Assembly: GCA_964405805.1 (NCBI GenBank)
Contig: CAYOPE010000005.1
Span: 1 to 38,183, forward strand
Source of the DNA: an uncultured Candidatus Saccharibacteria bacterium
Lineage (GTDB): Bacteria; Patescibacteriota; Doudnabacteria; UBA920; O2-02-FULL-48-8
DNA length: 38,183 nucleotides
Reading direction: 5' to 3'
The notes beneath the pieces were generated by a model, which did no database searches, was not told the origin of the DNA, and saw only the letters and a program-made list of their open reading frames with translations. Position 1 is the first letter of the stretch; the number at the start of each line of letters is the position of its first letter. The position numbers and the translations under genes are program-made. Below, in pieces: positions 26,226-30,638 of the stretch.

Positions 26226-27416
26226 ATGAATAAAAACGACGCAATTGATGAATTGTTAACACGTCGGATTGGACTAACTGACGGTAGAAGAGACGTCCAG
26301 CCTTCCCTAGACGAAATCAAGAAAAGATTGTCGGCTGGAAAAAATCTAAGAGTATACTTGGGAATAGATCCTACAGGTCCTGATTTACATTTGGGGCACA
26401 CTATCCCCTTACTTTTTTTGAAGCAACTGCTAGATCTAGGTCATCAGCCAGTTTTGCTCATTGGGGATTTTACAGCAACGATCGGTGATCCAACTGGCAA
26501 GGAAGTGACAAGAGAGCCGTTGTCTAAAGAGCAAGTAGCTCACAATATGAAAAAATACCTTGACCAGGTGTACAAAATTTTACCCAAAGGATCATTTGAA
26601 GTGGTATACAATAGTTCTTGGTTATCAAAATTTTCTATTGATAAATTTTTTCAATTACTGAGTAATGTAACCGTGCAGCAATTGATAGCTCGTTCTATGT
26701 TTCGGGAGAGAATGGATAAAAAAAGTCCTTTGGCAGTCCATGAGTTTTTATATCCTGTTATGGTCGGTTATGATTCGGTAGCTTTGGAAATAGATGGAGA
26801 GGTTGGTGGTATAGATCAATGGTTTAATATGGGTATCGGAAGAGATTTAGAGAAGAAGTTGTTGAATAAAGATAAGATGGTTTTTGCGACCAGATTACTG
26901 GTCGATGCTGAATCAGGGAAAAAGATGAGTAAAACTGAAGGCGGTTTGATATCATTATCTGATTCGCCAAATGATATGTTTAGGAAAGTTATGGAATCAA
27001 TTCCTGACGAAATGATTGTTACAGTATTTGAACTTTGCACAGAAAAAGACACGAAGTGGATAAAAGATAATTTATCTAGAACCAAAAAAGATCCTTTAGC
27101 ATTTAAAAAAGATCTAGCAAACGAACTAGTAACTATGTACCACTTTCAAAGTGCGGCCAAAGAGGCTCGAGCAGAATGGGAGCGAGTAGTTAGCAAAAAA
27201 GAAAAGCCATCCCAGATCGAAGAAATGAAAGTGAAAGCTAGAAATATTGTCGATGTTCTTGTCGAAACCAAACTTGCAGCAAGTAAGAGCGAAGCGAAAA
27301 GATTGATTGAACAGAAAGGCGTGAAAGTGGATGACCAGGTAGCATCTGAAGAAACTCAAGCAGGTTCAGGCTCTCTCATCCAAGTTGGAAAACGAAAGTT
27401 TATAAAAATTAAATAG
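26226..27416 (+). CDS. tyrS: tyrosine--tRNA ligase
   Basis: GIDPTGPDLHLGH, GDPTGK, EFLYP, GG.DQWFN, KMSKT, C-terminal S4 domain. Confidence 0.97.
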   Translation: MNKNDAIDELLTRRIGLTDGRRDVQPSLDEIKKRLSAGKNLRVYLGIDPTGPDLHLGHTIPLLFLKQLLDLGHQPVLLIGDFTATIGDPTGKEVTREPLSKEQVAHNMKKYLDQVYKILPKGSFEVVYNSSWLSKFSIDKFFQLLSNVTVQQLIARSMFRERMDKKSPLAVHEFLYPVMVGYDSVALEIDGEVGGIDQWFNMGIGRDLEKKLLNKDKMVFATRLLVDAESGKKMSKTEGGLISLSDSPNDMFRKVMESIPDEMIVTVFELCTEKDTKWIKDNLSRTKKDPLAFKKDLANELVTMYHFQSAAKEARAEWERVVSKKEKPSQIEEMKVKARNIVDVLVETKLAASKSEAKRLIEQKGVKVDDQVASEETQAGSGSLIQVGKRKFIKIK

Positions 27417-27540
27417 ATCGCCACGCGACTGCCAAAATTAGTTCTTAAAGATAAAGCAGTCGCTCGCGATGGTCAGTAACCATTGCGAGGAGGCCGAGAG
27501 TTCAAGCTTTGATTTAGCTTGGCGGCCGACGAAGCAATCT
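27415..27540. repeat. composite palindromic element after tyrS
   Basis: two inverted arms, AGATCGCCAC..CTCGCGATGG and CCATTGCGAG..CGAAGCAATCT, each with an internal hairpin. Confidence 0.7.
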
Positions 27541-27551
27541 AAATCCAGGCC

Positions 27552-27580
27552 TTGCTCCTGGGCCTGTTTTTTAGTATACT
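27552..27580 (+). promoter_or_regulatory. promoter of the first GC-rich orphan ORF
   Basis: TTGCTC-17 nt-TATACT. Confidence 0.6.
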
Positions 27581-27635
27581 TGAATGCTTGCTTACCCGGA
27601 CGTTAACCGGGCGCATAGCGTGTAGGAGGAATGCC

Positions 27636-27935
27636 ATGAGAGTTCGAAACAAGCCGAGCGCTACGGTGTATCGTGAAGAACTTCGTCAGGCCGGCCTGAG
27701 CGACGAGAAGGTCAACCTGGTCATGAAGGCGTCGCGCGGCCAGTCCGGCAGTCTGTCGATCGTGAAGATGGCCGACGCGCTGGCCCGTCACAAGGTGGCG
27801 AACGCCGAAGCGATCATCGCCCGCACCCGTGGCCTCAGCACGGAGCAGCCCGCGGCGCCTGTCGTCGAGGCTCCGGCGTCCGGTCAGGGCGTGGGCTCGG
27901 GCGAGCCGGTCACGGAGGGAGTCGCCCAGGGGTAG
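27636..27935 (+). CDS. GC-rich orphan protein (99 aa)
   Basis: AGGAGG SD 6-7 nt before ATG; GC-rich third positions; downstream terminator. Confidence 0.75.
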   Translation: MRVRNKPSATVYREELRQAGLSDEKVNLVMKASRGQSGSLSIVKMADALARHKVANAEAIIARTRGLSTEQPAAPVVEAPASGQGVGSGEPVTEGVAQG

Positions 27936-27966
27936 GCGATCGTCGTCGTGAGTGGGGACACACAAG

Positions 27967-28005
27967 GGGTCAGCGGCCGCAAAGCTGCTGACCCTGTTTT
28001 ATTTT
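27967..28005 (+). terminator. intrinsic terminator
   Basis: GGGTCAGCGGC-CGCAAA-GCTGCTGACCC followed by a T-rich tail. Confidence 0.75.
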
Positions 28006-28022
28006 CCTGATTGTACATCTTT

Positions 28023-28098
28023 TTGCTCCCCCGTGCATTTTTATGTACAATCGTTTTTTAACAGGAGCCTTGCTCCGGGGTCTGTTTTTTGTTATGCT
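28023..28098 (+). promoter_or_regulatory. two tandem promoters with TTGCTC -35 boxes
   Basis: TTGCTC-17 nt-TACAAT (28023-28051) and TTGCTC-17 nt-TATGCT (28070-28098). Confidence 0.55.
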
Positions 28099-28140
28099 GG
28101 GTTACTTGCTACTGGGACAAAACTGGAATGAGGAGGACCC

Positions 28141-28365
28141 ATGCCAATTGAGTTGGATCTGGTGGGTGAGGCGATCGCGAAAGTTCCGAGGGTGGGCAGG
28201 AAGGGAGCGGCGAACATCGTTCGCAAGATCAAAGAAATCGCTGGCGAAAAGACCTACGCCAACTTTCTGCGACAAGCAGAAGAAGCTGGTAGATTTCGTC
28301 GACTCAGCGAGGCGAACCCGCCGCATCCCGGAATGAACGACGGCCATCCCACACCCGAGCGGTAG
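28141..28365 (+). CDS. small orphan protein with helix-hairpin-helix-like motif (74 aa)
   Basis: GAGGAGG SD; IAKVPRVGRKGAANI resembles an HhH motif. Confidence 0.65.
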   Translation: MPIELDLVGEAIAKVPRVGRKGAANIVRKIKEIAGEKTYANFLRQAEEAGRFRRLSEANPPHPGMNDGHPTPER

Positions 28366-28373
28366 CCCCGGCC

Positions 28374-28835
28374 TCAGCGCCCGATTCCCGCCCAAGCTAT
28401 GGCTGCAGCGTCTGCTGCGTCATCTGGCTTGGGCACTTTTTTTAATTTCAGTAAAGTCTGGACCATGCGCTGAACCTGTTTTTTGTCCGCTTTGCCATAG
28501 CCAGTGGCAGCGATTTTGACTTGTAGCGGCGTCACTTCTACGATCTTCAAGCTGTGCTCAGCCGCAGTAAGCAGTACCACTCCCCTGGCTTGGGCTACAC
28601 TCATCACGGTCTTCGCGTTCGAAAAGAAAAACAGGGACTCGACACAGATAGCATCAGGTTTCCATTTTTTTATAAGGCCAACCAGGTCTTTTTTTATTTC
28701 CAGAAGCCGTACAGGATCCGGATTTTTATCCGTAGTAATACAGCCGCACTCTTTGAGTGTGATACTGTTGCCAGTTTGTTCGAGGATTGCATAGCCTGTG
28801 CGGCCGAGGCCAGGGTCGATTCCAAGTATTCTCAT
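28374..28835 (-). CDS. ruvC: crossover junction endodeoxyribonuclease RuvC
   Basis: MRILGIDPGL..TGYA, VESLFF, QARGV, TPLQVK, GYGKADK.QV, DDAADA. Confidence 0.97.
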   Translation of the reverse strand: MRILGIDPGLGRTGYAILEQTGNSITLKECGCITTDKNPDPVRLLEIKKDLVGLIKKWKPDAICVESLFFFSNAKTVMSVAQARGVVLLTAAEHSLKIVEVTPLQVKIAATGYGKADKKQVQRMVQTLLKLKKVPKPDDAADAAAIAWAGIGR

Positions 28836-28836
28836 A

Positions 28837-29299
28837 AGTATCGATGCGAATATACTAATTTACTAATGATACTAATAATAAGCTAGAAAAATCTCTTTCT
28901 AGCATCTGTTTCAATTCTAACAATTCTGACCGGTTTTAGATAACGATTCTGAAAATTAACCAGAAGCGCTAAATCTTTTTTTGTGGATTGCAAATAGCGC
29001 TGACTTTGATAAAAATCCTGCTTTAAGATTAGGCGTTTTGATTTGATTTCCAAGATAATCTTGTCGTCAACTAGAAAATCGAGGACGTTTCCTGTGTCTA
29101 CGACCCGGTGTTCTCGCTTGTACGGGATTTTGGCTTCTTTCAGCAAGTCTTCTATTGCGTCTGCGTATTGCTTTTCACGAGCAAACCTCCCTAGGTTGTT
29201 ATGCACACTGAAACAAATGCCTGTGAGTGTATATGATAACTGCGGGTGTATTAATTTATTTGTATAATTAGTATTCATTTGTATATTAGTATCGATACT
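28837..29299. mobile_element. candidate GxxExxY cassette bounded by inverted repeats
   Basis: 23-bp imperfect IRs (20/23 match) at 28837-28859 and 29277-29299, extended by TACWAAT arrays; fills the yebC-ruvC junction. Confidence 0.6.
28883..29278 (-). CDS. GxxExxY protein (PD-(D/E)XK nuclease-like)
   Basis: LSY.LTG.CF.VHN.LGRFAREKQY, DFLVDDKIILEIK, Q..RYL, LLVNF; start placed at MNTNY. Confidence 0.9.
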   Translation of the reverse strand: MNTNYTNKLIHPQLSYTLTGICFSVHNNLGRFAREKQYADAIEDLLKEAKIPYKREHRVVDTGNVLDFLVDDKIILEIKSKRLILKQDFYQSQRYLQSTKKDLALLVNFQNRYLKPVRIVRIETDARKRFF

Positions 29300-30011
29300 A
29301 CACAGTGTTTGCGTGTACATTAACTACATCCTCATCATTCTCTAGCGATTCAATCAAACTTTCAACTTTCAATCTATCCGACTCATCCAAGCTAATTGAT
29401 TGCTGTGGGCGCATGATGGATTCAGAAGACAGGACTTTGATCTCTTTACTCTCGATAAATTTTTTAATTTTTTCTAGGTCCAATGTCAAAGTATAAATTT
29501 CTAAGCCTTCTTCGGTTTCTTTTACATCCTCCACTCCTTGATCGATCAGTTCTAAAGAAAGATTCTCGGTTCCTGGCTGCTTTTCGACCAAGATTTGGCC
29601 TTTGGACTCAAACATCCATGTCACTGATCCTTGCTCGCCCATGCGGCCATTGTGTTTGTTGAAAATATTGCGGATATTCTGAGTCGTGCGGTTTTTATTA
29701 TCAGTGATAGCCTCGACTATGAAAGCCGATCCTGCCGGCCCATAGCCTTCACAGATGACTTGTTCGATAGCTTCTTTGCCTTCGCCTGATCCTTTTTTGA
29801 TGGCGCGATCAATATTATCTGCAGGCATGGCTGACTCGCGTGCTTTATCCAAAGCCTGTCGCAGTTTGAAATTGAAACTAGGATCAGCTCCACCCCCAGC
29901 TTTTACAGCTACAGAAATATTTTTGGCTAATTTCGTAAACAGCTGACCACGCTTGGCATCAGCTGCGCCTTTGGCCCTTTTGATTGTCGCCCATTTACTG
30001 TGGCCGGACAT
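29298..30011 (-). CDS. yebC: YebC/PmpR-family regulator
   Basis: MSGHSKWATIKRAKG, EGYGPAG, TDNKNRT, LENDEDVVNV. Confidence 0.96.
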   Translation of the reverse strand: MSGHSKWATIKRAKGAADAKRGQLFTKLAKNISVAVKAGGGADPSFNFKLRQALDKARESAMPADNIDRAIKKGSGEGKEAIEQVICEGYGPAGSAFIVEAITDNKNRTTQNIRNIFNKHNGRMGEQGSVTWMFESKGQILVEKQPGTENLSLELIDQGVEDVKETEEGLEIYTLTLDLEKIKKFIESKEIKVLSSESIMRPQQSISLDESDRLKVESLIESLENDEDVVNVHANTV

Positions 30012-30017
30012 AAAAGC

Positions 30018-30049
30018 ATTATATCAAAAAACCGCCGAAGGGCGGTTTT
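30018..30049 (-). terminator. intrinsic terminator fused to an extended -10 promoter
   Basis: minus strand reads AAAACCGCCC-TTC-GGCGGTTTTTT-GA-TATAAT-6 nt-ATG. Confidence 0.8.
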
Positions 30050-30638
30050 AGAAACCACTGGCTCTGGGTAATACTTCGTCTTCGTATAATGCTAGAAGCT
30101 GATCTACTGTTCTTTCTTCTTCAACCCATTTGCCATCTTTATCGGTTTTAGAGTCATTGACATTACACATAATGCTGTCACCTCGGAGAATCCCTTTATC
30201 AAGGAGTGCTCTTAACATGGCTCGGCAGTCGGCGCAGGGATGCAGCGCATCGTGCTCGTGAGCGTCACCTGTAGAACTTTCTTTAGACACAGTGACCATG
30301 GCCACAATTAGCTCCGCATCATTATCTATGGCTTTTCCTACAGCAGCTCGCTCGCCACACTTTTTTTGAGAACCCTTAAAAGAAGGTTTCTCTTTATCTT
30401 TAAAATTGTGTCCTGTAAAAATACTATAGTCTCGTTTGCCATCGCCAGGCATAGTCATGACCGATGCCCCGACATGAAAGCCTCGATATGAGAAGGCCCA
30501 GTCTCTTTCTTGAGCTGCCGCTGTGATGAGATCTTGCTTGAAAAATTCACGGTAATTTCGAACATGCTCAGTCATATCCACTGGTTCGTCTTCGCGATCT
30601 CTATTCCATTCTGAAAAATTATGAACTTCAGCTTGCAT
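30048..30638 (-). CDS. divergent cytidine-deaminase-like protein
   Basis: SYRGFHVGAS, FTGHN, CGERAA (C-x-E), PCADCR (PCxxC); start MQAEV lies 1 nt after the gyrA stop. Confidence 0.8.
   Translation of the reverse strand: MQAEVHNFSEWNRDREDEPVDMTEHVRNYREFFKQDLITAAAQERDWAFSYRGFHVGASVMTMPGDGKRDYSIFTGHNFKDKEKPSFKGSQKKCGERAAVGKAIDNDAELIVAMVTVSKESSTGDAHEHDALHPCADCRAMLRALLDKGILRGDSIMCNVNDSKTDKDGKWVEEERTVDQLLALYEDEVLPRASGF

Follow-up and report, generated by a model that had tools for sequence, protein, structure and literature searches.

The 463 nt that separate yebC from ruvC (positions 28837–29299) in contig CAYOPE010000005.1 of an uncultured Candidatus Saccharibacteria bacterium, analyzed here within a stretch of 38,183 nt (hereafter the window), are probably a small selfish mobile cassette: an autonomous copy consisting of one GxxExxY nuclease gene and two inverted arrays of short units, the arms, which the nuclease recognizes as its own. 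A mobile cassette had been proposed in a preliminary description made from the letters of the window; the proposal is borne out, as far as genome comparison can tell, by the same cassette with its arms at other sites and by gene-less miniatures. Genomes, contigs and loci are referred to below by G, C and L numbers, the genome of the window being G000.

RuvC was searched for in 40 relatives and found in 37; 29 loci were fetched, and at 27 of them the junction was readable with both genes present (L013 and L028 were excluded). The preliminary description had named a lack of empty sites as the observation that would count against a cassette; a GxxExxY gene between yebC and ruvC was found in 0 of the 27 relatives. 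The TGA of yebC overlaps the ATG of ruvC (...AAC-YT-ATGA) in 13 of them, and yebC of the relatives ends in ...N-L-stop. The spacer between the two genes is about 10–20 nt in 6/27 relatives and 60–135 nt in 8/27; most of the long spacers are palindromic or composed of short repeated units. These eight loci (L009, L012, L014, L018, L021, L024, L026, and L032) represent several unrelated types. The DNA-fold z-score was −2.2 to −6.8 for six of the eight, the rows of L026 and L032 (and L033) not being used. The yebC-ruvC junction looks like a recurrent landing site.

Excision of 28837–29299 in silico (by reading) joins ...GTGT to TATGAGA and gives a TTATGA overlap as in the relatives; yebC then ends in ...N-T-V-L-stop. 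In the window, the right end of the element overlaps the yebC stop, as the preliminary description had stated; this stop codon, TAG (29298–29300), consists of the preceding T and the first two bases of the element, and only the last codon of yebC is lost. On the other side, a single base, and not the two initially reported, lies between the left end of the cassette and the ruvC ATG (28833–28835). On this comparison, the 463 nt are an insertion with base-exact boundaries. No direct repeat or target-site duplication was seen by eye at the window copy, at the other full copies or at the miniatures that were read, and inspection by eye revealed no target motif; where flanking bases are similar, they are (again by eye) inverted rather than direct.

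The two ends of the cassette, 28837–28859 and 29277–29299, form an inverted repeat with 20/23 identical positions, and the right tip, AGTATCGATACT, is a perfect palindrome of 12 nt; both features had been described correctly. The same holds for the arrays of three units on the left and four on the right: the left arm contains three TACTAAT units and one TGCGAAT, and the right arm has four TAC(T/A)AAT units encompassing the start of the nuclease gene (MNTNYTN). With a looser unit definition (degenerate T-R-C-N-A-A-T), four units are counted in each arm. The nuclease ATG lies inside the 5' arm, which also supplies the AG of the new yebC stop. The flank-to-flank alignment (L060) scored 46, against 17.4 ± 3.0 for shuffled sequences, and none of the 200 shuffles scored as high. 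In the whole 830-kb genome, the tip pattern matched the two cassette tips only, and its reversed version matched nothing. A promoter scan revealed no sigma-70-like promoter on the gene strand within the arms; with no promoter of its own visible, the cassette is presumably read through from yebC.

Two further genomes of the same taxonomic family encode proteins 85% and 78% identical to the window protein, with near-identical arms at different junctions (before a polA-like gene; between a terminator and trmD). Further copies were obtained from a scan of 185,579 species genomes, and the resulting seven copies, in 7 genomes, occupy 5 different gene junctions. Similarity among three and then among all seven copies is limited exactly by AGTATCGAT... 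and ...ATCGATAC(T); the nuclease ATG is kept in 7/7 copies, and beyond the tip the upstream DNA of the copies shows no relationship. Mean pairwise identity among the seven was 93% for the 5' arm from tip to ATG (90% through the first 12 codons), 95% for the last 39 nt of the 3' arm, 70%, 84%, and 44% for codon positions 1, 2, and 3, respectively, and 23% for the 6-nt linker. Since silent sites are saturated while the 3' arm is nearly unchanged, these values point to selection on the arm sequence and not to a recent transfer. By this measure, purifying selection acts on the protein as well as on the two arms, and the cassette evidently relocates together with its arms as a unit.

The site upstream of trmD carries a full cassette in G013 and miniatures of the window type in G023 and G008. 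Several genomes have other palindromes there, and in most others the site is empty, including G000 and G024, the latter belonging to the genus of G013. An element of the ATATCTAAT type was observed in G017 both at the yebC-ruvC junction and before trmD.

Gene-less elements were found with a pattern for the 3' arm (no more than 3 mismatches). Of the 146 genomes that represent the order, 7 contained a total of 15 matches, and the reversed control gave none. The matches represent 4 full cassettes and 10 elements of about 100 nt that lack the gene and are composed of the 5' arm, a linker of about 15 nt retaining the old stop-codon region, and the 3' arm. A tip-to-tip pattern for another unit type, TACGAA, detected 9 miniatures in G000 and 21 in G008, two genomes with a TACGAA-armed gene. 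One or two were found in G024, G013, and G012 (which have such a gene or a truncated copy), and also in G007, G021, and G009, all lacking a TACGAA-armed gene; none was found in G006 and G018, which likewise carry a gene or a truncated copy, or in the other 15 genomes (reversed control, 0–1). Two TACGAA-type miniatures of G008, both 63 nt long (C6:103294-103356 and C6:301459-301521), are identical, which suggests recent copying. A third, at C6:38760 of the same genome, differs by 2 nt.

The nine TACGAA miniatures of G000 are intergenic, 65–80 nt long, with tips CTACGAA / TTCGTAG (C1:20214, C1:55053, C2:41107, C2:53220, C3:27123, C4:41954, C7:9382, C13:17747, and C35:2528), and match the arms of the GxxExxY gene on contig C6 of this genome. 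The distance from the tip to the next ATG is 0–5 nt for the window type and 9–30 nt for TACGAA miniatures; with such short spacers, target choice and selection cannot be separated as causes of this closeness. A scan of metagenomes with a 19-nt arm word gave 82 matches in 80 loci, which were left out of the counts. Seventeen of them have the ATCGATAC tip (14 miniatures, 1 full cassette, and 2 unresolved; some duplicated), about 15 are further miniatures with other tips, and the remainder look like chance AT-rich matches.

The design is shared by the family of GxxExxY loci. Two more GxxExxY genes are present in the window's genome, with inverted flanking arrays of ATGCGAA and TACGAAA units, and the gene was found in 13 of the 25 genomes of the taxonomic family (29 matches). 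Significant inverted flanks occurred at 26 of these 29 loci; the other three are in-frame inserts in lepA, where the 3' arrays have decayed (largely, in two). In these inserts (L036 in G011, L037 in G007, and L038 in G008, three genera), the GxxExxY domain and the 5' array are translated in frame within the G domain, between its motifs RGITIK and DTPGH, giving open frames of 700–750 aa. The family loci were pooled with 54 loci from the wide scan and each locus was counted once (four wide-scan loci duplicated loci already in the set, and one duplicated another wide-scan locus); 62 of the resulting 78 distinct loci had inverted arms at z ≥ 4. The preliminary description had expected the absence of flanking inverted arrays from other GxxExxY genes to speak against it, and such arrays proved to be widespread. 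According to record titles, the 54 wide-scan loci derive from many groups of the candidate phyla radiation (CPR), Bacteroidota, Gammaproteobacteria, and Spirochaetota, with one archaeal label.

The units have a common frame of two variable bases followed by C-N-(A/G)-A, with 3–4 units per arm; the most frequent spacing is 8 nt (77 cases), followed by 9 (45) and 10 (41). On the protein tree, proteins with the same unit type group together (11 changes, where shuffles average 17.3; 0/200 shuffles as low). The tree was built for 44 proteins after the removal of 18 loci that had too few units, contained stop codons or gave short matches. The cassettes are about 440–500 nt long and have the same orientation as their neighbors. 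The preliminary description had suggested surveying GxxExxY loci for insertion at stop/start junctions. Among the 62 armed loci, 40 have an upstream stop no more than 15 nt away and 39 have a downstream start at no greater distance; a divergent-only neighbor was found in 3 and a convergent-only neighbor in 3, the calling of neighboring open reading frames (ORFs) being crude. GxxExxY was the sole cargo seen between the arms in these loci, all of which were collected with GxxExxY as the query. In one subfamily (L053, L054, L048, L059, and L064), with TCCGAAT units and tips AGCGATCC / GGATCGC, the ORF continues through the 3' array, which is translated into a C-terminal tail rich in S-D-H and S-D-N.

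The identity of the window genes as RuvC, YebC, and GxxExxY was established by Pfam and NCBIfam. The nuclease assignment of the preliminary description stands well above the cut-offs: 65.8 bits against 22 for PF13366 (E-value 6e-18) and 64 bits against 35 for TIGR04256. The catalytic set of PD-(D/E)XK enzymes (the glutamate of helix 1, an aspartate, and (D/E)xK) is present in the window protein; E35, D67, and K79 do not vary among 22 aligned relatives, and the acidic (D/E)xK residue, at position 77, was seen by eye to be either E or D in this alignment. The motif of the window protein is G-x4-E-x2-Y, one residue longer than GxxExxY. By these signs, the nuclease is maintained with its catalytic residues retained. 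The structure model (pLDDT 89) predicts a minimal restriction-endonuclease-like domain, matched best by the nuclease domain of BpuSI (Z 8.1, rmsd 2.7, 94 aligned residues), followed by SSO0001 (Cas4-like; Z 7.5), 3ijm (Z 7.3), and Hjc (Z 6.4); no structural relative of the model stands out. A sequence search of the PDB with the nuclease gave nothing below an E-value of 0.2, and Foldseek with the model gave no match at E ≤ 0.001. An entry in the 2012 survey of the PD-(D/E)XK superfamily gives the function of the GxxExxY family as 'Unknown' (PMC3424549, in part), and in the accessible part of a preprint the family figures as a domain label only (bioRxiv 2021.01.26.428298).

We read the arms as arrays of putative protein-binding sites on DNA that make the left and right ends different from each other. 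The element would have inserted into the TTATGA stop/start overlap that yebC and ruvC ancestrally shared, without duplicating the target, its first bases supplying the new yebC stop and its last base coming to lie 1 nt from the ruvC ATG. Several nuclease molecules would bind the repeated units of both arms on duplex DNA; this binding would mark the two differentiated ends, and the nuclease would cut the DNA at the tips or close to them. Host repair or replication functions would then assist in moving or copying the element, or a gene-less miniature consisting of just the two arms. We infer the binding, the cleavage and, above all, the joining step. The wider proposition is evenly balanced: GxxExxY cassettes may be a new superfamily of prokaryotic transposable elements whose sole protein, a PD-(D/E)XK nuclease of about 130 residues, acts on end arrays with a C-N-R-A core, mobilizes itself and miniatures resembling REPINs (doublets of repetitive extragenic palindromic, REP, sequences), spreads across phyla, and settles at stop/start junctions and in frame in essential genes. 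A literature search, whose coverage did not extend to subscription journals, found no description of such mobile DNA.

Several observations weigh against a self-mobilizing nuclease cassette. To our knowledge, a lone PD-(D/E)XK nuclease neither transposes DNA nor catalyzes strand transfer, and the joining step therefore lacks a candidate enzyme. Miniatures of the window type were found in G006 and G023, in which no cognate gene was found, and the genomes used for copy numbers are related and hence not independent samples. Both genomes rich in TACGAA miniatures also carry a gene for a Y1 transposase; the presence or absence of Y1 is confounded with that of GxxExxY, and neither enzyme can be singled out on this basis. 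A protein tree on which unit types cluster would also result from simple linkage. The decayed 3' arms of the three in-frame copies in lepA show that some copies are clearly immobile fossils. The window cassette has no close relative, the nearest protein being 85% identical. Movement itself was not seen: the only sequencing run found to contain this DNA (probably its source, available as contigs) spans the stretch without joints and is uninformative on excision and expression, no RNA run was listed as containing it, and the stretch was not found in two other runs of the same study.

Alternative explanations were weighed against these data. It is unlikely, in our view, that the cassette is an element of the MITE type (miniature inverted-repeat transposable element) moved in trans by another enzyme, either a Y1 transposase resembling RAYTs (REP-associated tyrosine transposases) or an unrecognised host factor, with GxxExxY as a passenger, e.g., a defense or addiction gene. 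A Y1_Tnp gene is indeed encoded in G000 (41.9 bits) and in 9 of 24 relatives of the taxonomic family, including G008 and G024, which carry TACGAA miniatures, and the miniatures of G006 and G023 without a cognate GxxExxY gene would fit an enzyme acting in trans. However, the Y1 genes of G000, G008, G012, and G005 each have their own GC-rich palindromes, with no relation to the TRCNAAT arrays (none is evident at G024), array elements occur with no Y1 match in G006, G013, G007, G021, and G009, six other transposase families were not found in G000, and no cargo other than GxxExxY was found between the arms of the 62 loci, subject to the query by which they were collected. Rather unlikely, too, is an action of the arms mainly in RNA, where they would form a stem in a yebC-GxxExxY-ruvC transcript that is cut (e.g., by RNase III, like rRNA intervening sequences) or keeps translation coupled by bringing the yebC stop close to the ruvC start; the conservation of the arms would then be due to this structure. 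The arms can form the closing stem of a 485-nt RNA (−109.6 kcal/mol, z −3.45; 0/100 shuffles as good), and the position of the cassettes between stop and start, almost always in the orientation of their neighbors, would suit such a role; yet a closing fold is the automatic outcome of any inverted repeat. Mismatches between the arms show no G.U bias: among loci at z ≥ 4, with four duplicate loci counted twice, 58 wobble-compatible and 56 incompatible transitions were tallied, and 270 of 384 mismatches were transversions. They fall at the degenerate unit position and in the spacers. The arms also differ in register, and their asymmetry is conserved, the outermost unit being CTAAT in the 5' arm of 7/7 copies and CGAAT in the 3' arm of 6/7; what is conserved is the sequence of each arm, spacers included, rather than complementarity. 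Rfam gave no match for an RNA reading in 27300–30200 at E ≤ 1. Of the two roles that the preliminary description had offered for the ends, nuclease-binding arrays are favored by these patterns and pairing in mRNA is disfavored, although the stem may have a side effect on yebC-ruvC coupling.

Improbable as well is a free-standing homing endonuclease gene, which would cut cassette-free junctions and be copied in by homologous repair, the arms being accessory. Its setting between highly conserved genes, its variable presence among close relatives, and the occupation of the junction before trmD in three genera all agree with homing; PD-(D/E)XK homing endonucleases exist, and one, I-Bth0305I, is in the list of fold matches, as a weak match. 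A single target specificity, however, does not explain the same cassette at 5 unrelated junctions, the miniatures multiply at many non-homologous sites (including the two identical copies of G008), and homing does not predict a constraint on the arms above that on the protein. Very improbable is a fixed, immobile host gene that regulates itself through repeated operator sites. Stable synteny behind a conserved promoter-like sequence was found at L039, L041, and L049 in three genera, and the in-frame lepA copies are common to three genera; such a gene is contradicted by the empty sites, the joint relocation of cassette and arms, and the miniatures with their identical copies. The reading that accords best with these observations is the selfish cassette whose nuclease recognizes its own arms.

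The cassette was further compared with known mobile systems. In G000 (98.7% complete), no matches were found for the DDE transposase families PF00665 (rve), PF01609 (DDE_Tnp_1), PF13358 (DDE_3), and PF00872 (Transposase_mut), nor for IS110 and OrfB_IS605. Membership of the IS200/IS605 family was ruled out by the absence of a PF01385 match in G000 and by the cassette encoding neither TnpA (Y1) nor TnpB. The REP/REPIN-RAYT systems are similar in having one small enzyme gene between inverted cognate repeats, dispersed intergenic gene-less palindromic doublets (a likeness of design, not of sequence), a high copy number where the gene is present, and no target duplication. They differ in that the cassette enzyme is a PD-(D/E)XK protein (PF13366 only) and not a Y1 HUH enzyme (PF01797), that an arm is an array of 3–4 degenerate units of 7–8 nt instead of one GC-rich hairpin, and that GxxExxY cassettes also occur in frame inside lepA. 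The REP hairpin carries a GTAG or CGTC tag (PMC3733652, in part).

PF01797 was matched in G000 by a single gene, located away from the cassette and flanked by different hairpins. This RAYT-like gene (G000:C1:24766-25398, outside the window; 41.9 bits) has the palindrome GTGGAGGGCGCCCCTCCAC on both sides. The RAYT-like genes of G008 and G012 likewise have their own palindromes on both sides, that of G005 has one upstream, and none was found at G024. The Y1 gene of G000 with its hairpins is a classical REP-RAYT arrangement beside GxxExxY cassettes.

With MITEs and their parent terminal inverted repeat (TIR) transposons (DDE type, e.g., IS630/Tc1), the cassette shares terminal inverted repeats, the combination of autonomous and short two-end copies, and an intergenic location, whereas its ends are arrays of short units. 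Membership of this group was rejected, as neither a DDE transposase, in the element or in the genome, nor, by eye, a target-site duplication was found. Free-standing homing genes (phage seg/mob) are likewise small nuclease genes of variable presence between conserved genes, and homing endonucleases of the PD-(D/E)XK type, such as I-Ssp6803I, are known; inverted arms and miniatures are not among their features, and the cassette lies at unrelated sites. Homing genes occupy one target at homologous loci only, while the seven copies were found at five unrelated junctions, and this class was rejected as well.

ORF-bearing intervening sequences (IVSs) of 23S rRNA of the Leptospira/Coxiella type contain a small ORF whose flanking inverted repeats can pair into a long stem of the transcript, and the classical ORF belongs to another family, PF05635. 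The cassette resembles them in its small ORF between inverted repeats able to form a long stem and differs in its host, an mRNA junction, and in having no sign of selection for pairing: in sequence data only, an arm-closing fold is possible, and neither wobble bias nor a compensatory pattern was found. Rickettsia palindromic elements (RPEs) are palindromic insertions tolerated in frame inside essential genes, which recalls the lepA copies; they have neither a gene nor unit arrays. TnsA of Tn7 is also a restriction-enzyme-like PD-(D/E)XK nuclease, which cuts transposon ends only together with the DDE protein TnsB, and the cassette has no TnsB-type partner.

Coordinates of the cassette, its parts and the adjoining host genes are listed below.

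Table 1. The cassette at the yebC-ruvC junction and its host genes (window coordinates).
Feature	Coordinates	Strand	Description
Whole cassette	28837..29299	-	463 nt: 5' arm, nuclease gene, short linker, 3' arm
5' arm (gene-sense upstream)	29250..29299	-	AGTATCGAT tip, then four TAC(T/A)AAT units
GxxExxY / PDDEXK_3 nuclease gene	28883..29278	-	131 aa; start MNTNYTNK; stop TAG 28883-28885
3' arm, non-coding	28837..28876	-	ATTAGTA-type units; ATCGATACT tip last, 1 nt from ruvC ATG
yebC (TACO1/YebC family), upstream host gene	29298..30011	-	PF01709, PF20772
ruvC, downstream host gene	28374..28835	-	PF02075 (E 5e-48); adjoins yebC in the relatives fetched

A weak terminator-like hairpin of 9 pairs lies over the nuclease stop codon (28882–28903, minus strand) and is not conserved in the other six copies. 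Just downstream of ruvC, the segment 27450–28370 has a G+C content of about 60% in a genome of 45%. It contains two ORFs on the plus strand with no Pfam match (27552–27935 and 28141–28365), a terminator-like hairpin near 27965–28000, and a promoter-like TTGTAC...TACAAT. Segments of high G+C content are common in this genome: 94 of at least 58% were counted in 300-nt windows.

If the proposed role is true, an uncharacterized protein family would gain a testable function, and a type of mobile DNA with none of the known transposase chemistries would be added. The window copy is a convenient test case: it has base-exact boundaries, its empty site is provided by 13 relatives, and its arms can be synthesized. 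Such elements matter for annotation in that essential genes, lepA and yebC among them, acquire tails or inserts; in very small genomes they take up intergenic spacers, and they may flag sites where the genomes of uncultured bacteria have been rearranged or have exchanged genes.

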